DNA of 64,000 nucleotides from a virus (lineage: Duplodnaviria; Heunggongvirae; Uroviricota; Caudoviricetes). A model generated the notes under the pieces. The model had not been told where the DNA came from. It was given only the letters and a program-made list of their open reading frames with translations, and made no database searches. Of the stretch, positions 14,621-64,000 are shown piece by piece; position 1 is the stretch's first letter, and the number at the start of each line of letters is the position of its first letter. The stretch lies in the IMG/VR virus record IMGVR_UViG_3300034091_000309, one strand, 5' to 3'. A program made the position numbers and the translations under genes.

Positions 14621-14621
14621 T

Positions 14622-15008: not shown

Positions 15009-15091
15009 AGAACGGCTCGGGGCTGTTTTTTTTGCTGCTACTGCTGGCGATAGCGGTCCTGGGCGGCCCACGCCGGCGGTGAGGAGGAGGA

Positions 15092-16236: not shown

Positions 16237-16307
16237 AAAATCACCCTTGACCCCAAAGGGAAATCGGCTTATTGGTAGGTCACCGAGGAGCGCAGAGGAG
16301 GCGCCCG

Positions 16308-17372: not shown

Positions 17373-17386
17373 AGACGACGATTGTT

Positions 17387-17566
17387 ATGACCGTGGAAAC
17401 AGATCACGGTTGGGATTCTACGCCCAACGCCGTAGGGATTTTGATCGACATGAAAGAGGCGGTCAAGGAATACCGCCTAGCTTTGGCGCGGAGTGGTGTA
17501 CTCAACCAGACGATAGTTGACCAGCAAACCGGAACTTTCATCAGGGTGGAGGTGTCGAATGCCTGA
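17387..17566 (+). CDS. small hypothetical protein (59 aa) between exonuclease and RecT
   Basis: Protein-like frame; its stop overlaps the RecT start. Confidence 0.4.
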   Translation: MTVETDHGWDSTPNAVGILIDMKEAVKEYRLALARSGVLNQTIVDQQTGTFIRVEVSNA

Positions 17567-18683
17567 AACCGCACTTGCAGTCAATGTGCCGCAACCGGCT
17601 CAGCTTCAGGTGAGCCGGGAGTGGGAGAATCACCTGGAGCTGATCCAGCGCACGGTGGCGCCGGGACTGACCCCGGAAGAGTTTCAGTTGTTTTGCCATG
17701 TGGCCCGTGTCCGCCACCTGGACCCGTTGCAGCGGCAGATCCACGCCGTCAAGCGCACGACTTGGGACCCGGAGAAGAGCGGCTACGTGGAGAAGATGAC
17801 GATTCAGACCGGCATTGACGGCTACCGGTCGATCGCCAACCGGACCAATATCTACATGCCCTCTGACAAGCTGCCACAGGTCGACGACGGCGGCAAACCG
17901 GATCTGCGGGTTACGGTGTGGGTGAAGAAGTTTTCGCCGAATGATGGAGCATGGCACGAGTTCGGCGCCACGGCCTACTACCGCGAGTTCGTTCAGACAA
18001 GAAAAAACAAGCAGAGCGGAAAGGTGGAGCCGAACTCCATGTGGGAGAAGATGCCCATCAACCAACTGACCAAGTGCGCGGAGGCACTGGCGCTGCGCCG
18101 CGGCTGGCCGGAGGAGTTGGGCGGCATCTATGTGGACGAAGAGATGCCCAGCCAGGAGCCAACCTACCTGCCGCCGGAGAACACGAAGCTGGACAAGACC
18201 AGGCGTGAGCTGGGCACACTCAAAACCTCGGCAGAGCCCAACCGGGGCCACGGGAACGAAGGCACACAGCGGCCACCGGAGCAAGAGATTTGCGCCGAGT
18301 GCCGAACGGTCAACGGTCACACGGAGGAGTGCAAGCTGAATTCCAAAAACGCGAAGCAGGCCAACCGGGGTCCCCAGCGACAGGTCCAAGTTGCTGGGGT
18401 GGAGAAGAAAAGCAAGCGGGAGGCCTGGGACAGCTATCCGGGCCACGATCCCAAGACTCATATCTCTTTCGCTGATGGGATTCAGCTCTTCGAGCTGCAG
18501 CGGAAACTGAGCATTGCCGAGGAGCAGGTCAAGGAATTGCTGGACCGGGAGTTCGAGATTCAGCATCGTCCGCTTATCCGGCAAGACCAGTTCCAACTGG
18601 TGCTGGATACCATCCAGAAGCAATTCGGGGAAAAGCCGGAAAAGGGCAACCTGGAGTCTCTGGAAGGTATGTTCTCGGAGTGA
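17559..18683 (+). CDS. recT: RecT-family single-strand annealing protein
   Basis: RBS ggaggtg precedes the ATG; typical RecT core FQLFCHVARVRHLDPLQRQIHAV...IQTGIDGYRSIANRT. Confidence 0.65.
   Translation: MPETALAVNVPQPAQLQVSREWENHLELIQRTVAPGLTPEEFQLFCHVARVRHLDPLQRQIHAVKRTTWDPEKSGYVEKMTIQTGIDGYRSIANRTNIYMPSDKLPQVDDGGKPDLRVTVWVKKFSPNDGAWHEFGATAYYREFVQTRKNKQSGKVEPNSMWEKMPINQLTKCAEALALRRGWPEELGGIYVDEEMPSQEPTYLPPENTKLDKTRRELGTLKTSAEPNRGHGNEGTQRPPEQEICAECRTVNGHTEECKLNSKNAKQANRGPQRQVQVAGVEKKSKREAWDSYPGHDPKTHISFADGIQLFELQRKLSIAEEQVKELLDREFEIQHRPLIRQDQFQLVLDTIQKQFGEKPEKGNLESLEGMFSE
18366..18402 (-). repeat. RPE-like palindromic element copy inside the recT coding region
   Basis: The sequence reads ggggtccccagcgacaggtccaagttgctggggtgg. 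Confidence 0.65.
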
Positions 18684-22419: not shown

Positions 22420-22464
22420 GACAGCTTCTAGCTCTTAGCTGACAGCGAACAGTTAGAAGCTAAC

Positions 22465-27016: not shown

Positions 27017-28807
27017 GTGAGTTACCGGGTCTTGGAGGGAGACGTGATGGAGGTACTGAAGACACTGCCGGATGAGTCGGTGCAGTGCTGCATCACTTCG
27101 CCCCCCTATTTTGGACTCCGCGATTATCAGATTCCGCCCAGCGTGTGGCCGAAACCCAGTAGTCAGTTGTCAAAGATCAGTTGTCAGCATGAGTGGATCA
27201 CCGAAGAGGTGGAGCGGGAGATGCGGCGCGGGCTGGGACTGAAAGACTCGCCGGCCAGCACACGTGGCGGGGCGATCAAATGCGCCGAGGTGGAGACGCA
27301 GCGCTTCGAGCGGGGCTTCTGCCGGCATTGCGGAGCCTGGAAAGGCTGTCTGGGGTTAGAACCCACGCCGGAGCTGTACGTGGCGCACATGGTGGAGGTC
27401 TTCCGCGAAGCACGGCGGGTGCTGCGGTCGGACGGCACATTGTGGCTGAACTTGGGGGATTGCTACGCGAACGATGGCAAATGGGGCGGCGAGACCGGCG
27501 GGAAGCAAGCCTATCTCGACGACGACAATCGCAAGCGTGTCGGCCGTGAAAAGCGGCTGACCGGGCTCAAGCCCAAGGACTTGGTGGGCATTCCCTGGAT
27601 GCTGGCCTTCGCGCTGCGCGCCGATGGCTGGTGGCTGCGCTCCGAGATCATTTGGTTTAAGCCGAATCCATTCCCCGAGAGCGTGACGGACCGGCCGACA
27701 AAAGCGCATGAGCAACTTTTCCTGCTGACCAAGAGCGCACGGTATTTTTACGACGCCGAGGCGATCAAGGAGCCGGGGGTGATGAAGCCGCAGGCCCGGC
27801 TTACGCCGCGGGATTTTGTGAACGGCAAAGACGCAGGGCGGCGGGCTGACCGGAGGCCGAATTATCGTCTGCGCGAAGCGGCCGAGCAAGAGAACGCGAT
27901 GCGCAACAAGCGCGATGTGTGGACGATTGCCGACGAGTCACCCCAACGATATGGACCTATCGTTGGGGACCCCGACGATACTCCACCAGCTCAAGGGAAG
28001 TGGTCCGGTGAAAACCCGCAAGCAGCAAGCCGGCGGATGACGGACAATGTGCGGGCTGCGAGAGCTGCGGGCGGAGCGCACGACAATCCCTTTTCACCCC
28101 ACGGACGTGGACCTGTCGTTGGGGACCCCGATTTCAGCACTGGCAGCAAGCATGGCCGCGGTATGACGCCACGGCACACACCGTATACGACGAGTTGCGA
28201 CCAATCGGGTCTGGATTCTGTTGAGCGCGGCGCCGGCCGCAACAAGAGAAGCGTGTGGGAGATTGCCACGCAGCCTTGGCCGCAGGCGCACTTCGCCACC
28301 TTCCCCGAAAAACTTGTTGAGCCCTGCATTCTGGCCGGCACCAGCGAGAGAGGCTGCTGTCCGCAGTGCGGCGCACCGTGGAGGCGGCCAACTTTCCGAG
28401 CCTGTAAAGAGTGTGGAGAGCCAATCCCGACGCAGGCCGACGAATGCGGCAACTGTGGTCACGTCAACGACTGGAAGAAAGGCCGCGTTGTCTCGGCGGA
28501 GATGCTGGCCACAGACTTTCATACGCCTGGACGCAGTGTGCCCCGCTACCCCGGCGGATTCGAGAACAAGACGCAGAGCGGTGATTGGCAGCCGACCTGC
28601 TCTTGCGGCGCGGAAGTTCCGGTGCCCTGCACGGTGCTGGACTGCTTCTGCGGTTCGGGGAGTTGCGGCGTGGTGGCGCTGCGCTATGGCCGGGATTTCA
28701 TTGGCATCGAATTGAATCCCCAGTATGCGGAGATGGCGAGAAGGCGCATTGAAGGCGATGCGCCGTTGTTTAATACGCCATCCGGAGGGGAGAGCGATGC
28801 TGCTTAA
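27017..28807 (+). CDS. DNA methyltransferase (N6-adenine or N4-cytosine; SPPY and FCGSGS motifs) with zinc ribbons and two in-frame RPE insertions
   Basis: Motif IV reads SPPYF and motif I reads LDCFCGSGS; in-frame RPE copies lie at 27939-27975 and 28095-28131. Confidence 0.65.
   Translation: MSYRVLEGDVMEVLKTLPDESVQCCITSPPYFGLRDYQIPPSVWPKPSSQLSKISCQHEWITEEVEREMRRGLGLKDSPASTRGGAIKCAEVETQRFERGFCRHCGAWKGCLGLEPTPELYVAHMVEVFREARRVLRSDGTLWLNLGDCYANDGKWGGETGGKQAYLDDDNRKRVGREKRLTGLKPKDLVGIPWMLAFALRADGWWLRSEIIWFKPNPFPESVTDRPTKAHEQLFLLTKSARYFYDAEAIKEPGVMKPQARLTPRDFVNGKDAGRRADRRPNYRLREAAEQENAMRNKRDVWTIADESPQRYGPIVGDPDDTPPAQGKWSGENPQAASRRMTDNVRAARAAGGAHDNPFSPHGRGPVVGDPDFSTGSKHGRGMTPRHTPYTTSCDQSGLDSVERGAGRNKRSVWEIATQPWPQAHFATFPEKLVEPCILAGTSERGCCPQCGAPWRRPTFRACKECGEPIPTQADECGNCGHVNDWKKGRVVSAEMLATDFHTPGRSVPRYPGGFENKTQSGDWQPTCSCGAEVPVPCTVLDCFCGSGSCGVVALRYGRDFIGIELNPQYAEMARRRIEGDAPLFNTPSGGESDAA
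27939..27975 (+). repeat. RPE-like palindromic element copy in-frame in the MTase (encodes SPQRYGPIVGDP)
   Basis: The sequence reads caccccaacgatatggacctatcgttggggaccccga. Confidence 0.75.
28095..28131 (+). repeat. RPE-like palindromic element copy in-frame in the MTase (encodes SPHGRGPVVGDP)
   Basis: The sequence reads caccccacggacgtggacctgtcgttggggaccccga. Confidence 0.75.
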
Positions 28808-29269: not shown

Positions 29270-30196
29270 ATGGCGAGCGCGGCGATAGATCAGGTTGCAG
29301 AGATCAGAGATCAGAGATCAGTAGGCGGCGCCCTGCGGGATGCAGAGCTGGCGCCGGTGATAACCATGCCCAGCCGTGTGCTGGGAGATGAGTTGCGGGA
29401 ACAGGTGCTCACCACCCCCGCGACGGTGGACTTGTCGCCGGGGACCCCGGAAGGAACGGGCACCCTGCGGGATGCCGAACTGCGAGAAGCAGTTCTGGAG
29501 AGCGACCGCTGCATCCGGCGGACCTGGATCAACGTAAGAAAGCAGTCGATGGAGATCGGCTGGGAGGCGGCCTTCCTGGAGCGGCATAACGCTTGGCAGT
29601 TTCTGGGCTTCAAGCACCAGCACGCCTACCGCATCGCGGTGGGCATCGGGCGCTCCAACTGGTACCGCCTGATGGCCATCGCGCAGAAGTTTCCCGAACT
29701 GTCGAAAGAGCAGTTCCTGGCCATGTCGATCGAGAACGCGGAGCGGCTGGGCCTGGAACCCAAGGAGGTGCGCTACGACCCGGAGCTGTTGTTGAAGGCG
29801 GCCACCCGCCAAGCGCGGGATTTCAAAGACGAGCTGACCACTCTGGGAGCGCACCGCGAGGGCAGACCCTTGCACGAGCACTGGGTAACGATGGAATGGC
29901 GGCTGCGCGAGGAGCAGCGCGCGGCTATCGAGAGGGGCTTGGGAGAGTGGCAGCAGGAGCATGGCATCGACGATGAGGGCTACGCGCTGGAGCTGCTGAT
30001 CGCCGAGTACCGGGAGCGGCCGACGCTGGTGGGCTTCATCAACGAATCCATCTACCGGCTCAAGCGCGAGGTTGAGGAGGCCGAGGACCTGGGCCGGCTG
30101 CGCGGGAGCTGTCTGCTGCTGGCCAGGGACATGGGCGAGATTTTGAAGGTTTGCTGCGGGGAACAAGACAGGGAACTGTGTGAGGGAAGAGTGTGA
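29270..30196 (+). CDS. hypothetical protein (308 aa)
   Basis: RBS gaggag precedes the ATG; an RPE copy is read in frame at 29412-29450. Confidence 0.5.
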   Translation: MASAAIDQVAEIRDQRSVGGALRDAELAPVITMPSRVLGDELREQVLTTPATVDLSPGTPEGTGTLRDAELREAVLESDRCIRRTWINVRKQSMEIGWEAAFLERHNAWQFLGFKHQHAYRIAVGIGRSNWYRLMAIAQKFPELSKEQFLAMSIENAERLGLEPKEVRYDPELLLKAATRQARDFKDELTTLGAHREGRPLHEHWVTMEWRLREEQRAAIERGLGEWQQEHGIDDEGYALELLIAEYRERPTLVGFINESIYRLKREVEEAEDLGRLRGSCLLLARDMGEILKVCCGEQDRELCEGRV

Positions 30197-30420
30197 GTGC
30201 GGAGTGTGGAGAGTGAGGCGCACTCTGACCACTGTTGCCGGAGGCAACCCATGGGTTTTGACTTGGTCCTTCTTGCAGCGATTTTAGTCGTGTTGGCGAC
30301 TTGGCTGGTGCCACCGCGCGAAAAGTGAACCAGGGAAGAGTGTGAGTGCGGAGTGTGAGTGTGCGGCGCACTGAGGGCTCACACTGACCACTGTTCACTG
30401 ACAACGACAACTGTGACGAA
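30181..30420. repeat. intergenic GT/TGA-rich hairpin spacer motifs (GAGTGTGAGTGCGGAGTGTG...CGCACTC...CACTGACCACTGTTCACTGA), two copies
   Basis: Members of a family of more than 15 intergenic spacers that share GTGAGTG and CACTGTTCACTGACCACTG words and are dense in TGA codons in all frames. Confidence 0.5.
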
Positions 30421-31399: not shown

Positions 31400-31518
31400 A
31401 AACCGCTGCTGCCCGTGGTTGTTTCTGGATTGGCGGATCGCAGGAACGGATTGAAAGACAGTTTTTAGCCACTAGCTTCTAGCTTTGAGCTGAAGGCTAG
31501 GAGCTGGAGGCTGTCCTT

Positions 31519-35309: not shown

Positions 35310-35834
35310 ATGAACAGACGCGAAGTATTGAAATGGGGCGGAGCCGGAGTGACTCTTACCTGCCTCTCGCCCACCATCCTTCTGGAGGGCTGCGGGGTAT
35401 CGACGATTCAAGCCTACATCATCGCCGTGGATACGGCGGTCACCGGCGTTCTCGATCTGCTGGGCGACAGCGCCCTGGCTGAAAAGATTCAAAACGCCGT
35501 GAATGCGGTCAACAAGGCCCTCAGCAACTGGACCTCGGGCACCATCCCGCAGATGGTGGTGGAGGCACTGAACGCTCTGCAGGCGGTGCTGGATACCGTG
35601 CCCATGTCGAATCTGCTGACCACAGCGATCAACATTGCGATCACGGCCATTGATGCGATCCTGGCTGTCTCCGGAGGGGACAAGATTATGTCTCTGGCGA
35701 CGGCGCGGCTCCATAAGCATCCGAAGCCGAACGAAGAACTCAAGACCCACCGGCAGTTCGCCAAGGCGTGGAACAGCGCCATCGATAACGCAGGTCTGCC
35801 GGCCAAGGCCAAGGTGCCGGTGCCGTTCTTTTAA
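35310..35834 (+). CDS. secreted hypothetical protein (Tat-like signal MNRREVLKWGGAG)
   Basis: RBS ggagtgaatgt precedes the ATG. Confidence 0.5.
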   Translation: MNRREVLKWGGAGVTLTCLSPTILLEGCGVSTIQAYIIAVDTAVTGVLDLLGDSALAEKIQNAVNAVNKALSNWTSGTIPQMVVEALNALQAVLDTVPMSNLLTTAINIAITAIDAILAVSGGDKIMSLATARLHKHPKPNEELKTHRQFAKAWNSAIDNAGLPAKAKVPVPFF

Positions 35835-35917
35835 GCAAAGCAGTGAAGAGTGTGCGTGTGGAGTGTGAGTGCGCCGCGCACTGTTCACTCACACACGCAA
35901 TCAAAAGGAGGAGAACC

Positions 35918-38736: not shown

Positions 38737-39393
38737 ATGGTGAAAAAACGCTGGTCGCCAACCGAGGACGAAGTTTTCCGCCGGCTCTATCCGCAGAGCA
38801 AGACCGAGCACCTGGCGCTCTACTTTGGCTGTAGTGTGTGCTGCCTGTATAACCGGGCCGCGCTGTTGGGGATCAGGAAAAGCGCGGAATGGAAGGGTAG
38901 CGACGAGGGTTGCTTTCTGCGCCGGCATCCGGAGGCAGGGGCGCCAATGCGCTTCAAGCCGGGCCATGTGCCGCCCAACAAAGGCTTGCGGCGACCGGGA
39001 TGGGCGCCGGGGCGGATGGCCGAGACGCAGTTCAAGAAGGGGCAGATGCCGTGGACTTGGGTGCCGCTGTGGTCGGAAAGGATGAGCAAGGAGGGCTATC
39101 TGGAGATCAAGTTCCGGGAGCGCAAGGGCCGGCACGGCAATTGGGCTAGTGCGCATGTTCTGCTCTGGGAGGACAGGCATGGCCCGGTCCCCAAAGGCCA
39201 CAAATTAGCCTTCAAGGACGGGGACAGGGCGCACATCGCTCTCAACAACCTGGAGCTGGTCTCGAACGCAGAGATGATGCGGCGCAACTCGGTGCACAAC
39301 CTGCCCAAGGAGTTGCAACTGGTGATTCAATTGAATGGGGCGCTGAAGAGAAAGTTAAGAGAGTTGTCAGAGGACAGTGTGAAAAAGCGGTGA
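38737..39393 (+). CDS. HNH homing endonuclease (HNH_3 family)
   Basis: Contains NWASAHVLLWEDRHGPVPKGHKLAFKDGDRAHIALNNLELVS. Confidence 0.55.
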   Translation: MVKKRWSPTEDEVFRRLYPQSKTEHLALYFGCSVCCLYNRAALLGIRKSAEWKGSDEGCFLRRHPEAGAPMRFKPGHVPPNKGLRRPGWAPGRMAETQFKKGQMPWTWVPLWSERMSKEGYLEIKFRERKGRHGNWASAHVLLWEDRHGPVPKGHKLAFKDGDRAHIALNNLELVSNAEMMRRNSVHNLPKELQLVIQLNGALKRKLRELSEDSVKKR

Positions 39394-39480
39394 ATCGTGT
39401 GAGTGTGAGTGTGGAGTGTGTGGTGCGCTGATGACTCGCACTCACTTGACCCCTGCCTTCTCAGGCACGAAAGGAAGCAA

Positions 39481-40390: not shown

Positions 40391-40470
40391 ACCGCTTCCA
40401 ACCTTTAGCTGAAAGCTAAAAGCTGCCCTTCTAATCCCTGACCACTGTTCACTGACCACTGAAAACTGTC
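40391..40470. repeat. stop-codon-dense spacer (ttagctgaaagctaaaagctg) plus a CACTGTTCACTGACCACTG word
   Basis: TAG, TGA and TAA are spread across all three frames immediately after a gene stop. Confidence 0.45.
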
Positions 40471-40483
40471 CCCTGTTTTTGCC

Positions 40484-45654: not shown

Positions 45655-46059
45655 GTGGAAAAGAAGCAACGCCGGTCGCGGAAGGGCGCCCAGAGGCGGA
45701 GCCGGATGCTGGCGCTGCGCTGTACCCCCGAGCAGTTCGAGATGCTGAGACGTGCGGCAAGATCGCAGGGGCGGTCGATGTCGGCGTGGGTGCGGGAGGC
45801 GATTGCCGCAATGTGTCATCTCATGGACCTTCATCCCAACGGCATGAACCCGCCGTTGCCACCCCGAGAAGCAAAGACCGCTTCTCAGGGGGGGGATAAG
45901 TCTTCGTCCGTGGGGTGGAATGAAGCAGGTGAAATCGTGCGCTGTGAGTTCTGCTACTTGGTTCAGTACAGAACCATCAACTCCCTTTGCAGAAGATGCG
46001 GTAAGCCTCTGTCTGTGGAGAAGGGTGGAAAGAAAACCGGTAAGGAGAGAAGGGGATGA
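45655..46059 (+). CDS. ribbon-helix-helix (CopG-like) protein with C-terminal zinc ribbon and an in-frame RPE segment
   Basis: GTG start after RBS ggaggcttgggg; RMLALRCTPEQFEMLRRAARSQGRSMSAWVREAI; the in-frame RPE copy lies at 45832-45868. Confidence 0.45.
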   Translation: MEKKQRRSRKGAQRRSRMLALRCTPEQFEMLRRAARSQGRSMSAWVREAIAAMCHLMDLHPNGMNPPLPPREAKTASQGGDKSSSVGWNEAGEIVRCEFCYLVQYRTINSLCRRCGKPLSVEKGGKKTGKERRG

Positions 46060-46352
46060 AGGATCAGGTGCAACTGCTGCTGGACCTGCGCGGGATGAGG
46101 AGAGAGGCCGGGATGCCGCTGGCGGAGGTGGTGAAACTGTCGGGCGTCTGCAAGTCGAATTACGAGCGGCTGCAGAACGGCGCCACGCCCAGCCTGGACA
46201 ATGCGCTGAAGTTGGCCCGCTTTCTGCGGATGCCGGTGGAGGAGATCTGGAAGTTGAAGGAGAGAGAACAACCATCCCACGGACGCGGAGCTGCGGGACA
46301 CACACGAAGTGGGTCGGGGGCTCCCGCTCAGAGATCAGGCGGAAAGAGGTAA
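46056..46352 (+). CDS. XRE-family HTH transcriptional regulator
   Basis: Contains LAEVVKLSGVCKSNYERLQNGATPSLDNALKLARFLRMPVEEIW. Confidence 0.55.
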   Translation: MKDQVQLLLDLRGMRREAGMPLAEVVKLSGVCKSNYERLQNGATPSLDNALKLARFLRMPVEEIWKLKEREQPSHGRGAAGHTRSGSGAPAQRSGGKR

Positions 46353-46354
46353 GA

Positions 46355-46711
46355 ATGGAAGCTCAAGTGAAGCTGCTGCTGGATCTGCGCGGACTGAGAA
46401 AAGAGGCCGGGGTCAAGCTGGAAAAAGTCTTGCAACAGTGCGGGCTGGAACGCTCGGTTTACGCGCGGTGTGAAAAGGGCGCCGAGCCCAAGTTGGGGAC
46501 GGCGCTCAAGGTGGCGCGCTTGCTGCAGATGCCGGTGGAAGAGATCTGGAGCCTCGCGGATGAACCACCCCAACGACGTGGACCTATCGTTCCCACCCCA
46601 AGAATCGAAGACCAATTCTTGGGGGCCCCGGTTGTTGGGGACCCCGGCGATGAAGGAACGGAAACGGGAGCGGAGAGCGAAAAGGAAAATGACCAATCCG
46701 CATCATTGTGA
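46355..46711 (+). CDS. XRE-family HTH regulator (tandem paralog) with an RPE-derived C-terminal tail
   Basis: Contains LEKVLQQCGLERSVYARCEKGAEPKLGTALKVARLLQMPVEEIW; the tail PPQRRGPIVPTPRIEDQFLGAPVVGDPG is encoded by the composite RPE at 46565-46647. Confidence 0.5.
   Translation: MEAQVKLLLDLRGLRKEAGVKLEKVLQQCGLERSVYARCEKGAEPKLGTALKVARLLQMPVEEIWSLADEPPQRRGPIVPTPRIEDQFLGAPVVGDPGDEGTETGAESEKENDQSASL
46565..46647 (+). repeat. composite RPE-like element including the variant hairpin CCCCAAGAATCGAAGACCAATTCTTGGGGG
   Basis: The same variant hairpin also occurs at 36876-36915. Confidence 0.65.
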
Positions 46712-47673: not shown

Positions 47674-48029
47674 AAGTGATCTTGGGCGGTAGCCGGAGTA
47701 TTAACGACATCGAAGCGCTCTACGCGGCCATCCGCGAGTCGGGCTTCGAGATCACCGAAGTCGTCTGTGGCGAGGCTCGCGGCGTGGATTTGATGGGCCG
47801 CTGGTGGGCGCAGCAGAACAACATTCATATCGCCAGCTTTGCGGCCGACTGGGCGGCCGATTCCCGGATGGCGGGCTACATCCGCAACCAGAAGATGGCC
47901 GACTATGCCGAGGCGCTGATCGCCGTCTGGGACGGCAAGAGCGTGGGCACTGCGCACATGATCGGCGTGGCCTTTGCTGCGGGGTTGAAGATTCATGTTC
48001 ACCGGACAGACAAGAAAGACAGCCTCTAG
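47670..48029 (+). CDS. DUF2493/SLOG-like (DprA-like Rossmann) protein
   Basis: Contains ILGGSRSI...VVCGEARGVDLMGRWWAQQ...ALIAVWDGKSVGTAHMIGVAFAAGLKIHV. Confidence 0.5.
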   Translation: MKVILGGSRSINDIEALYAAIRESGFEITEVVCGEARGVDLMGRWWAQQNNIHIASFAADWAADSRMAGYIRNQKMADYAEALIAVWDGKSVGTAHMIGVAFAAGLKIHVHRTDKKDSL

Positions 48030-48030
48030 T

Positions 48031-48080
48031 TTCTAGCTGATAGCTAAAGGCGAAAAGCTGACCACTGTTTACTGATCACT
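48031..48080. repeat. stop-codon-dense spacer (tagtttctagctgatagctaaaggcgaaaagctgaccactgtttactgatcactgactg)
   Basis: Same word family as the spacers at 22421, 31465, 34431, 40391, 60911 and 61301. Confidence 0.45.
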
Positions 48081-48103
48081 GACTGCTGGCGCCGGAAGAT
48101 GCG

Positions 48104-57449: not shown

Positions 57450-57559
57450 CGGCGGGCCGGGTTGGAGGAACGGTGTGAGTGTGGAGTGTGGCGCGCTGAC
57501 GACTCGCACTCGCACTGGCCACTGTTTCACTGTCTCTTTCACTGTTCTGGAGGAACTCA

Positions 57560-58113
57560 TGGCTGACTTCGATGTGGCGGTGGAGGTGGTGCTGGAGCAC
57601 GAGGGAGGCAAGGGTACTCTGCCCGGCGATCCCGGCGGGCCGACGGCCTTTGGGTGGTCGCAGGCCGCTTGCGAGGCCTGGGGGATCGCGCAGCCCGCGA
57701 CGGCGGCTGAGGCCGCAGCGCTCTACCAGAAGTATTTCTGGAATCCGCTCTACAACCAGATCGCCAGCCAGGAGGTAGGCACCAAGATTCTGGACGATTG
57801 CGTGAACCAGGGGACGCCGGAGGGCAGCAAGCACCTGCAGGAGGCGCTGGTCCGCTGCGGGCGGATGGTGGCGGTGGACGGGATCTTCGGGCCGGCGACG
57901 CTCACGGCCGTGAACCAAGCGCCGGAGGAACTTCTGCTGGGTTATTTCCGCTTGATCCAGTATCAGAGCTACGCAGCCTGGATCGCCGAAAACCCGGCGC
58001 GGGAGGCACTGCGCGTGGGGCTGGCCCGGCGGGCGGCTTGGCCGGATGACGCAGAGGGCACGATCGCGGCGGCGCTGCTGGCTGGAACGTATCAGCCGAC
58101 AGTGAACGAGTGA
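57560..58113 (+). CDS. endolysin, GH108 N-acetylmuramidase with PG_binding_3 domain
   Basis: RBS ggagga precedes the ATG; GH108 signature LEHEGGKGTLPGDPGGPTAFGW. Confidence 0.65.
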
Positions 58114-58228
58114 ACGGCTCCGGATTCACTTCTTCACCGCTTTTTTGGTGTTGACTTTGTGCGGGCGAAGCCGCAGGATAGGCGGCAGGACAAGAGCAGG
58201 AAAGAGCGCTGGCCCACGAGAAACGAAG

Positions 58229-58250
58229 AGGCCCGTGGGCCGTTTTTTGC
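58229..58250 (+). terminator. rho-independent terminator
   Basis: The hairpin ggcccgtgggcc is followed by gtttttt. Confidence 0.5.
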
Positions 58251-58287
58251 ACCCCAACGACATGGACCCGTCGTTGGGGACCCCGGT
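58250..58287 (+). repeat. RPE-like element copy
   Basis: The sequence reads gcaccccaacgacatggacccgtcgttggggaccccgg. Confidence 0.75.
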
Positions 58288-58307
58288 TTTTGCCTGACCA
58301 CTGTATT

Positions 58308-58499
58308 TCAGTGCCAGAGGCCCAGCCAGATTCCCCAGCCATGAATGACGGCGACGGGGAAAAAGATCGCTCCCGCGATCAAAAACCCGTAGAGGCGTTC
58401 GTTGAAGCAGGTGTAGAGATGCTGGCACCAGCCAGCGAACGAGAGCAGGAAGATGCCGCCGAAGAACAGGCATCCACAACCCGAACTGCTGTTGCTCAT
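58308..58499 (-). CDS. small membrane protein (63 aa), holin-like candidate
   Basis: RBS aaaggaa precedes the ATG; two hydrophobic segments. Confidence 0.4.
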   Translation of the reverse strand: MSNSSSGCGCLFFGGIFLLSFAGWCQHLYTCFNERLYGFLIAGAIFFPVAVIHGWGIWLGLWH

Positions 58500-58543
58500 C
58501 GCAGATTCCTTTCTCACACTGTCCACTGTTCACTGACCACTAC

Positions 58544-58816
58544 CTACTGTCCCCTGGAAGAGCCGGCCGGCCAGATTTTCGAAAGCAGGGCTTGAATCCG
58601 CTCGGCAAAGGTGAGCGCCACCGGGCACTCGCAGTATACCTGGCGATTGAGCGCCTTGAGCAACTGCATGGCCTGCACCCGGCCGTCGAGTGCCGAGAGC
58701 TGGTCGCCTTCTTGGACAAATTCGTCGGCCAGGTACTCGATGGCGTGGCTTAGGATCACCAGCGCGCGTCCCGCCTGGGGAGTGATGCGCCGGCGGCGAT
58801 TGAAGCTATTCTCCAT
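58544..58816 (-). CDS. hypothetical protein (90 aa)
   Basis: RBS gaggagg precedes the ATG. Confidence 0.5.
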   Translation of the reverse strand: MENSFNRRRRITPQAGRALVILSHAIEYLADEFVQEGDQLSALDGRVQAMQLLKALNRQVYCECPVALTFAERIQALLSKIWPAGSSRGQ

Positions 58817-58932
58817 TGTTCCTCCTCATAAAAAGCGAGATCCCAAACGGGTGGGTCTATCGCCCGTGGAATGGTAAATGCGCATCTCAAGCGAATGTGA
58901 GGCGCAGGTCATGTGTTTTTCCGGCCGGGCGA

Positions 58933-59625
58933 TCATTCGATGCTCCTGACCTTATCCGGCCTGGGCAGTTTGATGGCGCCTTTCGCCATCTGGCAGACGG
59001 TGCATTTGCAGCCCAGGGCGTGTCCAGTGCCGGCGGGTCTGGCGATGGTCACGCGCCCGCCCGTTGTGGCGATGGCGTCCGTCTGCTGCCCCGGCGACTT
59101 GGCGCCGGCCTGACCATTGTCGACTGTTCCCTGTCCACTGTTTTGTTCCGCTATCAATGCGCTGGGATCGGGAGCCGGCAAAGAGGGCTGGCGCCAGTCC
59201 TTGCGGCGGCGATCAACTATCAGTGCGCTGGGATCAGGAGCTGGCAGGGAGGGTTGACGCCATTCCTTGCGGCGGCGATCGACGCCATTCCACGAAGTGC
59301 GGTGGCACCATTTGCAGTGGCTACCATGTTTGGGCTCAACCCGCGTGTCCCAGGGCTTGCCTTTGCCGGGGCAGCCGGGGAGTTCGCAGGTGCAGCGATA
59401 GAAGGTCAGCAGAATCTTTTCCGGTTTCTGGGCGGCGACTGCGTTTTTGTTACGGCGGTCGACGCCGTCCCAGCGGTGGCTGTGGCAGGTGGGGCAGACT
59501 TGGGGGCGCTTTTCCTTGCGCGCCGTCCAGCGCCGGCCCTGGCGCGGGCAGCCGGGGGCCTGGCAGCGCCAGCGGTATACGGTTTTGGTGGTGACTTTTA
59601 CGCTCACGGCTGTTCTGCCCCCCAT
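58933..59625 (-). CDS. zinc-finger repeat protein with internal tandem duplication
   Basis: Repeated CPTCHSHRWDGVDRRNK / CKWCHRTSWNGVDRRRKEWRQPSLPAPDPSALI, with the latter unit duplicated. Confidence 0.5.
   Translation of the reverse strand: MGGRTAVSVKVTTKTVYRWRCQAPGCPRQGRRWTARKEKRPQVCPTCHSHRWDGVDRRNKNAVAAQKPEKILLTFYRCTCELPGCPGKGKPWDTRVEPKHGSHCKWCHRTSWNGVDRRRKEWRQPSLPAPDPSALIVDRRRKDWRQPSLPAPDPSALIAEQNSGQGTVDNGQAGAKSPGQQTDAIATTGGRVTIARPAGTGHALGCKCTVCQMAKGAIKLPRPDKVRSIE
59161..59290 (+). repeat. about 60-bp direct tandem duplication inside the CDS
   Basis: The unit ctatcagtgcgctgggatc.ggagc.ggcaa/gggaggg.tg.cgcca.tccttgcggcggcgatc.ac occurs twice. Confidence 0.5.
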
Positions 59626-59858
59626 AGGGATTCGAGAAGGTTCTTGAGACTCTGCGTCAGCTCGTCCATCCTCAAGTCGCCGATGACCGCTCCGCGGAAT
59701 GATCGCTGCAGGAAGGCCAGAAGCAGGGCGCAGTTGCGCAGATCCCGCGGGGTCGGCCGGGACGGCCACTTCTCCGCCGCGAAGAACTGGAAGAGGAATA
59801 CACCGGCAGCACCCAAAAGCGCGCCTCCAACCGCTACGAGAAAGATGGTCCAATTCAT
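59604..59858 (-). CDS. small membrane protein (84 aa)
   Basis: RBS ggaggg precedes the ATG; MNWTIFLVAVGGALLGAAGVFLFQFF. Confidence 0.45.
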   Translation of the reverse strand: MNWTIFLVAVGGALLGAAGVFLFQFFAAEKWPSRPTPRDLRNCALLLAFLQRSFRGAVIGDLRMDELTQSLKNLLESLWGAEQP

Positions 59859-59968
59859 TGTGCTGGCCCTCCAGAAACCGGGTTTTTACACGGTACGACG
59901 AGTGAACAGTGTGAAAACACGGCGCTGCACACTCGCACTCAACACTGGTCACTTCTTCATTGTCTTCC

Positions 59969-60319
59969 TCACACTTCAATCCTCGACTCCACGGCGCGGT
60001 TGGGCTGCACGAAGGCCACCGTCTTGCGCTCCGGCTGGTAGAGTTTGTGCTCGTCGAGATCCACCACGTCGATCTGCACGGGCTGGGGGTGCATCAGGTC
60101 GATGACTTCGGCGACGATCTTGAGATCGGCGTAGAGGCCGGCGAAGGTGACGGCTAATTTCGAGTCGCGTACCAGCATCAGCCAACGGGGCGGCTCATCA
60201 GGGATTTGCCAACCTTCCCGCGCGGGCGCATTGGCCGGGATGCACTCGTCGATAGTTGCGCGGCGGGCGGCGAAGTCGGGCTGGTTGGGGGCGATGCTAC
60301 GCTTTACTTGATCGCTCAT
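59969..60319 (-). CDS. hypothetical protein (116 aa)
   Basis: Protein-like frame. Confidence 0.45.
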   Translation of the reverse strand: MSDQVKRSIAPNQPDFAARRATIDECIPANAPAREGWQIPDEPPRWLMLVRDSKLAVTFAGLYADLKIVAEVIDLMHPQPVQIDVVDLDEHKLYQPERKTVAFVQPNRAVESRIEV

Positions 60320-60322
60320 GGT

Positions 60323-60505
60323 TCACCGCTTTCCTGCAAAGCATGGCGGACATAGGCCGCCTTGCAACTTATGGGGCCGCGTCGGGGTTCCGCAAAGGTT
60401 GCATTTGACCTTGTTGTCTGGCGCCCGCCGCGCCGCTTTCTTAGCGAACGCCTCCGGTCCACGCTTTTTGCGGGCTGCGTAATTGTCGCGATGTCCCTTT
60501 CCCAT
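60323..60505 (-). CDS. small basic zinc-ribbon protein (60 aa)
   Basis: RBS gaggaagg precedes the ATG; CNLCGTPTRPHKLQGGLCPPC. Confidence 0.4.
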   Translation of the reverse strand: MGKGHRDNYAARKKRGPEAFAKKAARRAPDNKVKCNLCGTPTRPHKLQGGLCPPCFAGKR

Positions 60506-60519
60506 GATCTGTTCCTTCC

Positions 60520-60804
60520 TCAGTTCTGCCCGGATCGCCGGGCGGCGTCGTCGGCCAGTTCGCCCGCCGTCTTCGAGTCGGGCCAGCAGGTGTAGACTTC
60601 TTCCCTGCTCAGCAGACGTTCCCGGAACTCCGGCGGCGGAAGAGGAACATTGAGCTTGGAAAGCGGAGCGGCCAGCACCTCGCCGCCGGGGTTGATCTTG
60701 AGCGCATGGGCTTCCCGCACCGCGTCGGCCGGGGAGGTGGCGCGCACCAAACAGGCGCCGCGAAAGCCGCCGCCGGCAAACGACAGGTACCACCATTCGG
60801 TCAC
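60520..60804 (-). CDS. hypothetical protein (94 aa)
   Basis: Protein-like frame. Confidence 0.45.
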   Translation of the reverse strand: MTEWWYLSFAGGGFRGACLVRATSPADAVREAHALKINPGGEVLAAPLSKLNVPLPPPEFRERLLSREEVYTCWPDSKTAGELADDAARRSGQN

Positions 60805-60828
60805 TTCGTATCCCTCGGATTTCTGAGC

Positions 60829-60864
60829 ATCCCAGCGACGAAGACCTATCGCCGGGAGCCCTGC
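60829..60864 (+). repeat. RPE-like element copy
   Basis: The sequence reads catcccagcgacgaagacctatcgccgggagccctg. Confidence 0.65.
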
Positions 60865-60880
60865 TTTGCCCTGCCGGGCT

Positions 60881-60911
60881 GGGTTGGTTTTGGTTCGCTA
60901 TCAAAAGGCAG
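60881..60911 (-). promoter_or_regulatory. conserved upstream box for leftward genes (plus strand ...GGTTCGCTATCAAA; minus strand TTTGATAGCGAACC...)
   Basis: One member of a family of 6 copies, each 25-60 nt upstream of a minus-strand start codon. Confidence 0.5.
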
Positions 60912-60939
60912 CTCCTAGCTCTCAGCTAAAAGCTCAAGG

Positions 60940-61239
60940 CTAACGACTCTGCTTCACGGGCACGGGCAGCGCATCGCACATCACGATCAGCGGCTCACCG
61001 GAAAATTTGGGAAGGTCCACATGCAGATTCCCGGCCGGCGCCTCACAGGGCGGGGTCTGGACCCAGATCGTCCATTGGCCGCCGGCGAGCTGGGGGCTGG
61101 TGCGCCAGCCGACGCGGGGAGCTGGTCTGGACAACAAAGCGACCGCCAAGATGAGAAGGGCAGTTGCCGCCAAGATGAGAAGGGCAGTTGCGGCAAGAAA
61201 ACCACTGACGACCATGACGATCAAAGGTTTGTTCATCAT
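60940..61239 (-). CDS. small membrane protein with internal tandem repeat (ATALLILA x2)
   Basis: A 24-bp direct DNA repeat gatgagaagggcagttgc.gc.aag occurs twice at 61141-61190. Confidence 0.45.
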   Translation of the reverse strand: MMNKPLIVMVVSGFLAATALLILAATALLILAVALLSRPAPRVGWRTSPQLAGGQWTIWVQTPPCEAPAGNLHVDLPKFSGEPLIVMCDALPVPVKQSR

Positions 61240-61265
61240 CTTTGCTTCTTTCTGGCGCTGCGCAC

Positions 61266-61305
61266 CCGTTATGTTGCGTTGATTTGGCCCGCTATCAAAG
61301 AGCAG
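61266..61305 (-). promoter_or_regulatory. conserved upstream box (minus strand TTTGATAGCGGGCCAAATCAACGCAACATAAC), a TTGATA-N17-ACATAA-like promoter
   Basis: Family member, upstream of the gene 60940..61239. Confidence 0.5.
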
Positions 61306-61333
61306 CTCTTCGCTGTTAGCTTCTAGCCAGAGG

Positions 61334-61633
61334 CTAATGGTTGATGGTGATGGTTTCGGCGCCGATCGACTGCAGGGTGCGCTCGACTTCAAGAAGGAAG
61401 CGGTGGTAGTTGCAGACGTAGAGACTCCCCTGCCGCGAGGCCCAGACGGCATCCTCTCCGCACATGCCCACGCGGTCGCACTCGATCGGGGCCGGTCGCG
61501 CGTCTGGACTCGGGGTCCCCAACGATGGGTCCATATCGTTGGGGTGATGATCGATGGCCCGCCAGACGGCGTCTTCGGCCATCGGCGGAAGGCCGGCTAA
61601 AACCTTGGCTCGGTATTCCTTGCCTAAATCCAT
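61334..61633 (-). CDS. hypothetical protein (99 aa) with an in-frame RPE segment (HPNDMDPSLGTPSPD)
   Basis: RBS gaggcaac precedes the ATG; an RPE copy at 61511-61549 is read in frame. Confidence 0.45.
   Translation of the reverse strand: MDLGKEYRAKVLAGLPPMAEDAVWRAIDHHPNDMDPSLGTPSPDARPAPIECDRVGMCGEDAVWASRQGSLYVCNYHRFLLEVERTLQSIGAETITINH
61511..61549 (-). repeat. RPE-like element copy, inverted orientation, inside a CDS
   Basis: The sequence reads cggggtccccaacgatgggtccatatcgttggggtgatg. Confidence 0.7.
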
Positions 61634-61654
61634 AGTTGCCTCAGTTTTCTTGGC

Positions 61655-61686
61655 GCTGTGCGCCGGTTGGTGGTGCGTTTAGTCGC
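61655..61686 (-). promoter_or_regulatory. conserved upstream box for leftward gene
   Basis: The plus strand reads gttggtggtgcgtttagtcgcctatcaaacc. Confidence 0.45.
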
Positions 61687-61694
61687 CTATCAAA

Positions 61695-61732
61695 CCACCC
61701 CAGCGACGTGGACCTATCGCCGGGGACCCCGC
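61695..61732 (+). repeat. RPE-like element copy
   Basis: The sequence reads ccaccccagcgacgtggacctatcgccggggaccccgc. Confidence 0.75.
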
Positions 61733-61831
61733 TATCAAATACGGTGCGCTTCTCGGAGTAGAATGTCAACTACATTCGTACTTGAGCATGGATTATTGCC
61801 GGTCGTCCAGAATTCGGACGGGCTGATTTGG

Positions 61832-61858
61832 TCCGCTATCAAAAACGCCGCGCGGGAT
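61832..61858 (-). promoter_or_regulatory. conserved upstream box for leftward gene
   Basis: The plus strand reads gctgatttggtccgctatcaaaaacgc. Confidence 0.45.
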
Positions 61859-61867
61859 CTCGGCCGG

Positions 61868-62935
61868 TTACTCGTTGACGATGTGGGGTGACTGGGGCTG
61901 GTAGTCGAGCTGCACCCGTCGTCCGCACTCGCAGCAGGTGCCCTCTTGCCAAGGAAGCGCTGTGCCATCGGCTTGGTACTGGGTCTCGATGGGGTCCCAC
62001 TCCACGGTTTCATGGGCGCAATCATCCAGAGCCTTCCATGTGTCATTCGCCGCATTGTAGAAAAGTTCGGCGCCGCATCTCTCGCACACGGTCTGCATCA
62101 CGCCCTGGTTACGGGGGATGTGCTCACAGGGCCGGGCGGGCGCCGGCGGGGCTGTAGGCGCGCCGTGCCGGTAGGCGGTTTCCAGAGCCGCTTTCACTTG
62201 CCAGACCGCTACTTCGTGAAAGTCGAGACGGTCAGAGTTGCGGGTCTCCAAGGTTTCAATCCCGAGCTGCGTCTTGGCAATTCCGGCGATCAGATCGGCC
62301 GGCGCCGGGTTTGGGGTAGCCGCGAACTGGCGAACGTGTAAGCTGTGTTCTGCTTCTACGTGTTCCCTCGTCACCTTTCCCGTAGAAGTGAAACTCCACC
62401 CGCCGCATGAGCAAGAGGCTTGGCCGTCTTGCAGGGAAAAGACAAGCAATTGATGGTCTGTGGTGTTGGCCGGGGCGGCGTCTGCCACTTCGTCAGCTTC
62501 GCTATACTGCGCTGCCGCGTCCAGCATGGCCGGCGTGATTCCGGCCGCCTCAAAGTTGGCCTGCTGCTCCGCAAGGATGCCGTGGTCGGCGGGCGTGGTT
62601 GCCGAGGCGGCGTCTGCAACGTTGATGGTTTCCAGTACGCCTTGGGTCAGGCAGAAGAAACCCGTGGTCTGGGTGATGGGCGCATACTGTCTGCCGGTGT
62701 CCAGATCCCAGACGGTTACAGCGGTGCGCTGGGTGTCGCTGGCGTCAATCTCAACGGCCATTACCTTCAGGGTTTCAGAGTTCATGGCCCACAGAGGTTC
62801 ATCGGCTGTTTCTATGGCCAAGTAACGGGCGGGGTGCTCGGGTATCTCCCAACCGTTTTCGACCGGGTGGGAATCATAGCCGATCTTGCTCAAAAGCAAG
62901 GTGAGCCGGGCGGCGTAATTGATTGCTGAGTTCAT
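61868..62935 (-). CDS. hypothetical protein (355 aa)
   Basis: RBS gagga precedes the ATG. Confidence 0.5.
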   Translation of the reverse strand: MNSAINYAARLTLLLSKIGYDSHPVENGWEIPEHPARYLAIETADEPLWAMNSETLKVMAVEIDASDTQRTAVTVWDLDTGRQYAPITQTTGFFCLTQGVLETINVADAASATTPADHGILAEQQANFEAAGITPAMLDAAAQYSEADEVADAAPANTTDHQLLVFSLQDGQASCSCGGWSFTSTGKVTREHVEAEHSLHVRQFAATPNPAPADLIAGIAKTQLGIETLETRNSDRLDFHEVAVWQVKAALETAYRHGAPTAPPAPARPCEHIPRNQGVMQTVCERCGAELFYNAANDTWKALDDCAHETVEWDPIETQYQADGTALPWQEGTCCECGRRVQLDYQPQSPHIVNE

Positions 62936-62958
62936 TTCGATCCTCGTTTTTCTCCCGG

Positions 62959-62988
62959 CCGGGCCGGGGGTGTGTTTGGTTGGCTATC
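62959..62988 (-). promoter_or_regulatory. conserved upstream box for leftward gene
   Basis: The plus strand reads ggtgtgtttggttggctatcaaatgacagc. Confidence 0.45.
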
Positions 62989-63015
62989 AAATGACAGCGT
63001 ACAGCGGCCGGCGGC

Positions 63016-63906
63016 TCAGGCCGCAGCCGATTCCAGGCTCTTGAGGGTTTCGTTGGGGTTGATGCGGGTGGGCGGAAAGACCCAGGTTACGCCGGGGTAG
63101 GGCTCTTCCTGGCCGTTGCCGGTGAAGCGGGCCACGGGAAAGTACGCCTTGATCTTTCCGCAGTGGAGCAACTCATACCAGGCGCGGGGATCGGGCTTTC
63201 GGATCTCCGCCCGAAGGGAGCGCATGGAATAGACATAGGCCCCGTTGACGCCGCTCCCGGCCGGCGTGTAGCGCTTGCCGCCGATGAGATAGGCGCAGAC
63301 AGAATGGCGGTCTTCCAATGGCGCCAGCCCTAGATACTCTTGTGTGTTCAGCCGGTTCTGGCGGGGGTCTTTTTCGATCTCGGGAAAGTGTTTCCATGCC
63401 ATGTGACCGCAGCGCTCCAGGTTGGGACCGCATTCCAGGGCGGGAAAATCCGGTGCGCTATCAAAGGTCATGTCGCCGATATGCCGGGTAGGGTGGGGGC
63501 CGCGGCGCAGGTCCAGGACGTGTACTGCGTTGGCGGCGGGGTTGAGGATGTAGACCCATTCCAGATCCGTGTCGGCCAAGTCGGCCTGGGTGAAGTAGTA
63601 GGTTTCATCCAGGGGCGTATGCTGGTGATGCTTGCAATGGGGATCGGGAACCTTGCCCGGTTTGGCCTTGCTCATCAAACCCAGCGCAATATCGTGGGGC
63701 TGGCTGGCGACCTGCCCGCAGTATTCGCAGACGCCGCCCTTGAGATAGTTGCGCCAGTCATCGAATTTCAGGATGGACTCGCCGATCTCGGCGAGAGTCT
63801 GTTGGCCTTGGGTCATCTGCCGGATCAGATGCTCATAGAGTTCCCGGCCCAGCTCCGTGGGGTAACTGTCGAAATGGTTGTAGACGCCGCGCCATTCCGC
63901 GCTCAA
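63016..63906 (-). CDS. hypothetical protein (296 aa)
   Basis: TTG start after RBS ggtaggag. Confidence 0.45.
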   Translation of the reverse strand: MSAEWRGVYNHFDSYPTELGRELYEHLIRQMTQGQQTLAEIGESILKFDDWRNYLKGGVCEYCGQVASQPHDIALGLMSKAKPGKVPDPHCKHHQHTPLDETYYFTQADLADTDLEWVYILNPAANAVHVLDLRRGPHPTRHIGDMTFDSAPDFPALECGPNLERCGHMAWKHFPEIEKDPRQNRLNTQEYLGLAPLEDRHSVCAYLIGGKRYTPAGSGVNGAYVYSMRSLRAEIRKPDPRAWYELLHCGKIKAYFPVARFTGNGQEEPYPGVTWVFPPTRINPNETLKSLESAAA

Positions 63907-63953
63907 CTCCTACCGCTCCCCGTGTACTCATGGGGTGTACTCACTTTCTGGGG

Positions 63954-63990
63954 CTGTGCCCCGGTTATGTTGCGTTTGGTTTGGCCGGCT
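63954..63990 (-). promoter_or_regulatory. conserved upstream box (plus strand gttatgttgcgtttggtttggccggctatcaaaatga)
   Basis: Near-identical to the copy at 61266-61305. Confidence 0.5.
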
Positions 63991-64000
63991 ATCAAAATGA

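Follow-up and report, generated by a model that had tools for sequence, protein, structure and literature searches.

A strand-specific box at the 5' edge of gene leaders in the accessory block of a large uncultivated phage

Which signal is repeated before successive minus-strand genes near one end of the phage record IMGVR_UViG_3300034091_000309 (IMG/VR; Caudoviricetes), and is it read on the DNA or on the mRNA? The whole stretch analysed, hereafter the window, is 64,000 nucleotides long with a GC content of 60%, and the genes in question, at 58.3–64 kb, form a minus-strand block that runs on past the window end. The original prediction, made from the sequence alone, had described a conserved ~35-bp box upstream of each block gene and taken it for a sigma70-like promoter of the form TTGATA-N17-(A)CATAA or, as a fallback, for the binding site of a phage-encoded factor. 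We find that the box is 17 nt long, bipartite and strand-specific, with the sequence t-TTGATAG-(C/G)NRa-CCAA-(a/c), that a portable leader begins with it at the 5' end, and that the sigma70 interpretation is wrong. Tentatively, with a probability of about 0.37, we read the box as a portable per-cistron leader element on early mRNA that is at the same time a recombination joint.

A repeated box before genes of one block

The pattern TTTGATAGSNNNNYMAA, allowing at most one mismatch, has seven matches in the window, all on the minus strand at 59.1–64.0 kb, against 0.21 expected from shuffled sequence, and the repeated box before successive minus-strand genes is thus real; the bare heptamer TTGATAG occurs 12 times against 2.9 expected. 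Six of the matches are intergenic, with their first T at 63996, 62991, 61843, 61694, 61299 and 60905, within about 10 nt of the predicted low-end coordinates, and the seventh is a degenerate match inside an open reading frame (ORF) at 59158. An extra intergenic copy at 61739-61729 is truncated. Another 8.9 kb beyond the window is provided by locus L001, in which position x corresponds to window position 72936 - x and which is identical to the window over their overlap save for one mismatch. Extending the search to this locus, as had been proposed with the prediction, revealed at least four tandem units 14–17 nt apart before a 604-aa gene (L001 5533-5595). Elsewhere in the at least 73 kb of phage examined (window plus L001, with ~61 kb of the genome unseen) there is no box, and window positions 1-59000 hold no match on either strand.

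The sequence common to all copies measures about 17–22 nt, TTTGATAGC-N3-CCAAAyC. An alignment of the copies with their flanks, again as proposed, shows variation everywhere except at TTTGATAG and, within the CCAAA block, at the C and AAA. The predicted 33-nt consensus matches a single site at up to 3 mismatches and, with its -10, is valid for no more than two copies. The 3' half CAACGCAACATAAC is restricted to the copies at 63996 (E) and 61299 (J), which have a 53-nt leader in common (87% identity) before unrelated genes, and the copies at 61299 (J) and 60905 (K) both have an AGCT-rich stretch upstream. Apart from these partial exceptions the flanks are unalignable, and the copies are accordingly independent boxes rather than pieces of one duplicated segment.

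Five of the six intergenic copies precede genes, as a rule of one box per gene would have it, whereas the copy at 61843 is followed by a 7-codon ORF only. Measured from the first T, the boxes stand 56–101 nt before the start codons and not 25–60 nt as first thought; the range narrows to 56–65 nt when ATG 63931 is taken as the start of the 296-aa gene and a 44-nt inserted hairpin is discounted from the 60905 leader. The distance from the upstream stop codons to the boxes varies from 25 to 218 nt. On the gene-proximal side the leaders are laid out as box, CAACC-like sequence, GC hairpin of 4–7 bp with a 3–5 nt loop, AGAAAG, Shine-Dalgarno sequence and start codon; in the predicted folds, box and Shine-Dalgarno sequence are both single-stranded, with the hairpin in between. 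Rfam covariance models gave no match at E values up to 1 in 58000-64000, and over the whole window matched tRNAs only. The boxes (with scores in bits), leaders and genes are the following.

63979–63996, minus strand: box E, TTTGATAGCCGGCCAAAC, before the 296-aa gene; 14.2 bits
63944–63962, minus strand: hairpin of leader E, GGGGC-ACA-GCCCC, then AGAAAG; leader J is its homologue and differs by compensatory changes in the stem
63016–63931, minus strand: 296-aa gene; long ORF from TTG 63906, ancestral start ATG 63931 followed by a 1-nt frameshift
62974–62991, minus strand: box F, TTTGATAGCCAACCAAAC, before the 355-aa DUF6900 gene; 16.2 bits
62954–62968, minus strand: hairpin of leader F, CCCGG-CCCGG-CCGGG, then AGAAAAACGAGG
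61868–62935, minus strand: 355-aa gene with a DUF6900 domain
61826–61843, minus strand: box G, TTTGATAGCGGACCAAAT, an orphan followed only by the 7-codon ORF and the hairpin GTCCGAATTCTGGAC; 17.8 bits
61729–61739, minus strand: box H, truncated (TTTGATAGCGG), abutting a copy of a genome-wide hairpin element (61692-61728); 7.9 bits
61677–61694, minus strand: box I, TTTGATAGGCGACTAAAC, before a 99-aa gene; 14.5 bits
61652–61664, minus strand: hairpin of leader I, GGCGC-ACA-GCGCC; the identical hairpin stands in a leader of the relative L187
61334–61633, minus strand: 99-aa gene
61282–61299, minus strand: box J, TTTGATAGCGGGCCAAAT, before the gene for a 99-aa membrane protein; 15.7 bits
61254–61266, minus strand: hairpin of leader J, GGTGC-GCA-GCGCC, then AGAAAG
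60940–61239, minus strand: gene for the 99-aa membrane protein
60889–60905, minus strand: box K, TTTGATAGCGAACCAAA, before a 94-aa gene; 17.0 bits
60868–60879, minus strand: hairpin of leader K, GCCC-GGCA-GGGC, then an inserted copy of the genome-wide hairpin element (60824-60867)
60520–60804, minus strand: 94-aa gene

Leader F recurs, without a box, before a 385-aa gene at L001 7565.

Related phages and the promoter question

The loci reached through homologues of the 296-aa protein are of two sorts: some resemble integrative and conjugative elements and lack the box, whereas the phage contig L185 has it. The former (L183 on an NCBI bacterial chromosome, L187, L189, L190 and L191) carry block genes without the box, which is hence not a property of those genes. 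L185 is a different phage contig from the same sample series (57% GC), with several block genes in common and a box before at least nine genes. Pattern and protein scans further identified the box in L227, L228 and L230 from metagenomes and in L125/L286, L282, L283, L284 and L285 from IMG/VR (50–53% GC), so that box-bearing contigs span 50–60% GC; the genes behind their boxes are unrelated. Box-bearing IMG/VR records include 3300043811_000021, 3300035490_000050, 3300029889_000001 and 3300037108_000012. Of the 78 metagenome loci matched by a 19-mer, true relatives are only L227, L228, L230 and perhaps L218. An 18-mer had 11 matches in 185,579 species genomes, all by chance and without a clue to the host, a 14-base pattern gave only single chance matches among the IMG/VR matches listed, the 57 loci reached through the DUF6900 domain have no box, and a literature search with the box sequence returned primers only.

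A logo of 51 sites reads t-TTGATAG-(C/G)(G/n)(R)(a)-CCAA-(a/c) and carries about 20 bits. A sequence-only model, R1, applied to both strands of 307 kb gave 59 matches, and all 59 lie on the gene-sense strand. The stem-loop is found in this phage and L185 only, and the relatives of intermediate GC content have no hairpin. In these mid-GC phages the distance from TTGATAG to ATG peaks at 37–38 nt (12 sites in 8 different gene families), and other sites lie 15–59 nt from the ATG. The Shine-Dalgarno sequence falls within the variable spacer of the box at five sites, for example TTGATAGGAGAACAAATG, and directly abuts the box at two more, while at about 11 junctions the TGA of the box terminates an upstream ORF that is 55 or more codons long. 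Both arrangements indicate that the box is present on polycistronic mRNA.

The gene borders of these phages are mosaic at the box. Homology between L284 and L286 spans exactly the interval between one box and the next, and an additional 507-nt unit of box plus gene lies between two boxes in L286. Among relatives, leader-only homologies of 28–42 nt (85–96% identity) are joined to unrelated genes, and joints of gene insertion, deletion or replacement fall in the element in L284 versus L286, L230 and L283, in E versus J, and in box D versus L185, where box D matches an L185 box that precedes a different gene. Where one phage has a box before a gene, the orthologue in another can have a TTGACA promoter or a plain leader instead. 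Cassette homology extends downstream from the box onwards, which makes the box part of the downstream gene's leader.

The TTGATA of the box is -35-like and agrees with TTGACA at five of six positions in nearly all copies. A -10 is lacking. An acceptable hexamer (A2, T6, at least four of six positions, spacer 16–18) follows only one of 43 boxes from this phage and its relatives (8 related contigs), which is no more than background, with 3.6% at random positions; 5 of 27 control TTGACA hexamers of the same loci pass the same test, and 14 of 27 have A2 and T6. CAACAT can be read as a -10 in copies E and J alone, two of the seven window copies, where the spacer is 16–17 nt and transcription would start at the base of the hairpin. 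A consensus promoter scan of the 12.5-kb block returned no sigma70-type site. In relatives the box often starts only 15–38 nt before the ATG, and with the Shine-Dalgarno sequence or an upstream stop codon inside the box it cannot serve as the -35 of the adjacent gene at many sites. A host sigma70 promoter with TTGATA as its -35 is therefore scarcely credible. Canonical promoters of the form cTTGACArrCG...TAnnnT (TTGACA-N17/18-TAnnnT) stand separately in this and related blocks, and the head of the present block has such a promoter, TTGACA-N18-TAAGCT at L001 ~3868, which carries no box. Separate promoters for the block again place the box on polycistronic mRNA.

Other known signals were also compared with the box and rejected. 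The promoter forms of sigma32, sigma28, sigma54, extracytoplasmic function (ECF) sigma factors and Bacteroidetes, the extended -10 and the ISDra2 target TTGAT do not fit the sequences; a promoter for leaderless mRNA would have a 21-nt spacer; an IHF site would need the missing TTR arm; and the RfaH ops element has TAG alone in common with the box. The RYYAAAY part of a marbox fits, but the first half does not, and an integron attC is contradicted by the lack of an inverted-repeat structure. Pairing with the 16S rRNA 3' end would require helix 45 to be unwound. Against a lambda-type nut site stand the lack of a boxA consensus, the missing hairpin in mid-GC relatives and the number of boxes, one per cistron rather than one or two per operon. 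The leader hairpin, together with the GGTTGGTTTGG that comes after it on the opposite strand, makes up the best terminator-like sites of the block (L001 8972-8988, 9966-9984 and 5600-5619) and might stop antisense transcription. As an explanation of the box, an antisense terminator (hairpin plus GGTTTGG) was discarded, since mid-GC relatives have no hairpin and the best-conserved part, TTGATAG, would fall beyond the U-tract.

Readings of the box

How, then, might the box work? In the reading to which we assign a probability of about 0.37, the block would be transcribed from its separate canonical TTGACA-type promoters, and portable leaders, in which the box is followed by a Shine-Dalgarno sequence and an ATG, with or without a short GC hairpin between box and Shine-Dalgarno sequence, would precede individual early or accessory cistrons. 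The box would act on the early polycistronic mRNA cistron by cistron, recognised by one trans-acting factor of phage or host origin, which would set the translation initiation of the downstream cistron, or its processing and stability, and thereby control the whole accessory gene set together. The leader would double as a joint for cassette exchange, probably via the phage's own RecT-type recombination, as the same 17–50 nt leader sits at many gene borders. A RecT annealing protein and a PD-(D/E)XK nuclease could exploit such short homologies. The box itself, its strand and position, the missing -10, the separate promoters and the mosaic joints are observed, whereas an effect on the RNA and a factor that binds the box are inferred. 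We favour the RNA-level reading for three properties of the box: each cistron has its own site, as a translational signal would need and a transcriptional one would not, the strand rule is absolute, and the box belongs to, and travels with, the leader of the downstream gene. As one cis signal is common to the block genes, their co-regulation is probable, and this part of the original prediction stands, if not with a promoter as the signal; its fallback, a binding site for a phage-encoded factor, likewise survives as a suggestion of the sequence.

In a more specific version, which we regard as distinctly improbable, the leaders would delimit cassettes that are integron-like but recombinase-independent, each leader being at once the mRNA operator of a dedicated per-cistron regulator and a homology patch for RecT. 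The accessory genes would then probably serve anti-defence or establishment, and RecT-type recombination would exchange the cassettes between large temperate phages. If this version were true, the box would represent a new class of translational control beside the unexplained Start-Associated Sequence (SAS) of mycobacteriophages, and the two would be instances of one widespread, uncharacterised regulatory principle of phages.

Several findings weigh against action on the mRNA, and some of them point to DNA instead. The two conserved blocks of the 51-site logo have their centres about 10 nt apart, a spacing classic for proteins that read two successive major grooves of DNA, which would fit a two-domain DNA-binding repressor. 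Box-like TTTG(A/T)TAG occurs in the spacer of three homologous TTGACA promoters of the relatives L185 and L284, and TTGATAGCG is conserved in the non-coding head region of the block; both hint at recognition at the DNA level. Fold z-scores are unremarkable, orphan and tandem copies exist without a downstream cistron, and no candidate binding protein was identified among the proteins examined. In addition, the 37–38 nt spacing may derive partly from the common descent of a copied leader rather than from constraint.

The alternative that draws most on these findings is a stoperator-like operator, at which a monomeric phage repressor would bind the double-stranded box at each junction, block RNA polymerase and silence the block, for example in lysogeny; we consider this unlikely. 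The stoperators of Cluster A phages (L5 gp71-type) are asymmetric sites of ~13–17 bp, many of them in short intergenic spaces and with an orientation tied to transcription, and their repressor recognises two successive major grooves with its two domains, as has been solved (PMC9283540). The box resembles them in its asymmetry, its bipartite form with ~10-bp spacing, its short intergenic sites and its single orientation relative to transcription, as well as in the -35-like hexamer inside the site. For comparison, the reverse complement of the stoperator GGTGGMTGTCAAG is CTTGACAKCCACC, and the box reads TTTGATAGCGAACC. The tandem arrays of the TTGATAGCGGG half, the box-like sequences in promoter spacers and in the head region, the integrase of the phage and a helix-turn-helix (HTH) gene divergent from the block would also suit a repressor system. 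Yet stoperators are found genome-wide and overlap the early promoter, whereas the boxes, over the at least 73 kb examined, are confined to one ~7–8 kb block and absent from its head promoter. They are also part of the downstream gene's leader by cassette homology, travel with it and keep a preferred distance to the start codon; furthermore, no homologue of the repressor and no cognate repressor was found, and the divergent 77-aa HTH gene (HTH_3-like) that adjoins the block has its own, different repeat, GCGCTTAAAGTGCGC, in two copies alongside.

A promoter for a phage-encoded or phage-modified RNA polymerase, T7-like or otherwise distinct from sigma70, seems quite unlikely to us. Transcripts would start just 3' of CCAAA and have short leaders, which in this phage would open with a stabilising 5' hairpin. 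The element is compact enough for this (~17–22 nt, ~20 bits) and strictly co-oriented, the hairpin follows the box here by 1–15 nt, as expected at a stable transcript 5' end, relatives would obtain a 20-nt leader containing the Shine-Dalgarno sequence, and an L185 ortholog has a TTGACA promoter where this phage has boxes. Against it, neither an RNA polymerase or sigma domain among the scanned proteins nor an ORF above about 610 aa is found in the window and its flank, with ~61 kb of the genome unseen. The boxes are limited to the accessory block, leaving the replication, methylase, tRNA and lysis regions, where promoters would be expected, without any; the five sites with a Shine-Dalgarno sequence inside the box and the two with one abutting it could not serve the adjacent gene; and tandem units 14–17 nt apart would be odd for promoters. 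Very improbable, in our view, is a mere recombination linker, in which the leader would be kept as short homology for cassette exchange among co-infecting relatives and play no role in expression. Mosaic joints exactly at boxes, the 507-nt cassette indel, the leader-only homologies and the RecT/nuclease pair are what such a linker would predict, and the orphan, truncated and tandem boxes resemble scars. It would leave unexplained, though, the fixed strand and the preferred position relative to the ATG, and TTGATAG and CCAA are near-invariant across phages of 50–60% GC while neighbouring positions are free, which argues for sequence-specific recognition rather than mere homology.

The box is a new variant among the start-associated or junction repeats of a few phage groups, which include SAS, stoperators and PeSLs. 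In behaviour its closest analogue appears to be the SAS (or ESAS) of Cluster K mycobacteriophages, the role of which is still unknown, with translation suspected, and about half of which are paired with an inverted repeat (PMC3203893; PMC11373665). Both are short asymmetric repeats that stand in a single orientation before the starts of many unrelated non-structural genes, that sometimes hold the upstream stop codon and that can have an inverted repeat or hairpin as a companion (PMC3203893; PMC11373665). Compared by eye, the G-variant found in relatives, TTGATAGGAGACC, and the SAS consensus, GGGATAGGAGCCC, agree in 10 of their 13 positions. In contrast to the boxes of the window, which lie 56–101 nt upstream and never contain a Shine-Dalgarno sequence, SAS lie 3–9 nt from the ATG and contain it. 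The window boxes are moreover of the C-variant (TTGATAGCG...) except for box I, which has G at position 8, their second block CCAA has no counterpart in SAS, and phage lineage and host differ. If membership is defined by the 13-bp GGGATAGGAGCCC with at most two mismatches, the boxes fall outside SAS: of the seven in the window, box I has TTTGATAGGC and the other six have TTTGATAGCG/C..., and the nearest variant of the relatives has three mismatches.

Likeness to two further systems is looser. Promoter-early stem-loop (PeSL) elements of T4-type phages are repeated regulatory modules with a stem-loop that flank small accessory ORFs, with joints of insertion, deletion and replacement at the module, and have been proposed to drive modular shuffling (PMC2839356; PMC4122927). 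A PeSL, however, has a real sigma70 early promoter and a terminator-like stem-loop, whereas the box has no -10 and in mid-GC relatives no stem-loop. The early genes of phage T7 are transcribed by the host polymerase from strong head promoters, with an RNase III site at nearly every cistron junction. Such sites and the box would both be conserved RNA signals at the junctions of an early operon, but those of T7 are double-stranded hairpins cut by host RNase III, while the box is predicted to be single-stranded and its hairpin is optional.

Accessory early blocks hold fast-evolving anti-defence and takeover genes. A conserved portable box at their junctions would account both for the joint regulation of such genes in the absence of a promoter for each and for their shuffling between phages of different base composition. 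Model R1 provides a simple handle to search for such blocks in metagenomes, and the function of start-associated sequences in phages, a long-open question, can be approached through the box as a second, independent system.

Other features of the phage and its relatives

The sequence derives from a large, probably temperate, uncultivated phage, as judged from its gene content, its assembly as a ~134-kb contig, identical in several peat-type metagenomes, and its relatives found later, which are IMG/VR viral contigs of 43–136 kb. The peat samples of origin are JGI 3300033405 and ENA ERZ27256985. The window encodes an integrase, several DNA methyltransferases, a DnaB-like helicase, a lysozyme and, at 16272-18683, an adjoining PD-(D/E)XK nuclease and RecT annealing protein, a phage recombination pair. 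A dispersed array of 22 tRNA genes occupies positions 562-13952, and amid it lie a 297-aa fragment related to alanyl-tRNA synthetase and an RtcB-like RNA ligase (3203-4096 and 6991-8526). Megablast of 24 kb against GenBank phages gave no match and thus no close relative there. Apart from the 77-aa HTH protein beside the block (L001 2922-3155, beyond the window end), the only HTH protein seen is one of 263 aa (45920-46711). A 224-aa multi-Zn-ribbon protein and a 60-aa basic Zn-ribbon protein are encoded at 58933-59607 and 60323-60505.

After the head promoter, the block begins with a DUF932 gene and a 71-aa gene, for the product of which no viral relatives were found, followed by the 604-, 385- and 296-aa genes, the 355-aa DUF6900 gene and about ten small genes without family matches. 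The non-coding head region (L001 3330-3760; L185 1-290; L284 1150-2450) is dense in short repeats, of the type CCYATWATCCC in L284 and CCCGCCCCGCC in the GC-rich phages, and also has a conserved TATGCGCC-N6-TTGATAGCG; it may be an origin or control region. Homologues of the 296-aa protein start with MSTRG(V/A)VAVG. Here, ATG 63931 encodes MSTRGAVGVERG, after which a shift of one base leads into the long ORF (63890-63931), and this stretch is identical in the five loci that cover it, the overlap with the window having a single mismatch. Either the frameshift is real (a pseudogene or recoding) or a downstream start is in use.

The genome-wide hairpin element has the form CACCCC-AACGAC-GTGGACCT-GTCGTT-GGGG-ACCCCGG and at least 30 copies in the window, such as 636-679, 8891-8934, 9126-9169, 28091-28134, 58246-58289, 60824-60867 and about 61692-61735. 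The stems show compensatory changes between copies, and the GGACC loop and the ACCCCGG tail are conserved. Almost all copies are oriented on the plus strand regardless of gene direction, with four reversed (14208, 18362, 37879 and 61507). Some stand directly 3' of tRNA genes, one separates box H from box I and one lies within the leader of the 94-aa gene. The family may be a REP-like (repetitive extragenic palindromic) or a terminator-like element. A different small hairpin, GTCC(G/A)GAWTCTGGAC, is conserved shortly 3' of stop codons in several related phages and has no U-tract (window 61806-61820; L001 5508-5522 and 8727-8741; L185 ~2570 and ~6740; L187 ~13815).

Elsewhere in the genome, three families of low-complexity intergenic repeats stand just upstream of start codons: CAGTG/CACTG heptads (40424-40475, 48058-48095 and 58515-58556), GTGTGAG runs (30164-30386, 35833-35894, 39380-39443 and 57473-57511) and AGCT-rich TAGCTnnTAGCT (22423-22461, 31474-31512, 48021-48059 and 60910-60948), the last of which precedes boxes J and K. 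In L185, a CRISPR-like array adjoins a serine recombinase gene at ~14300-15250, with a further repeat fragment near 18772; in the array the 37-nt repeat GGCGCAACGTACTGAGAGTGCATCCNACCGATGCAAC occurs ~13 times, separated by spacers of ~35 nt.

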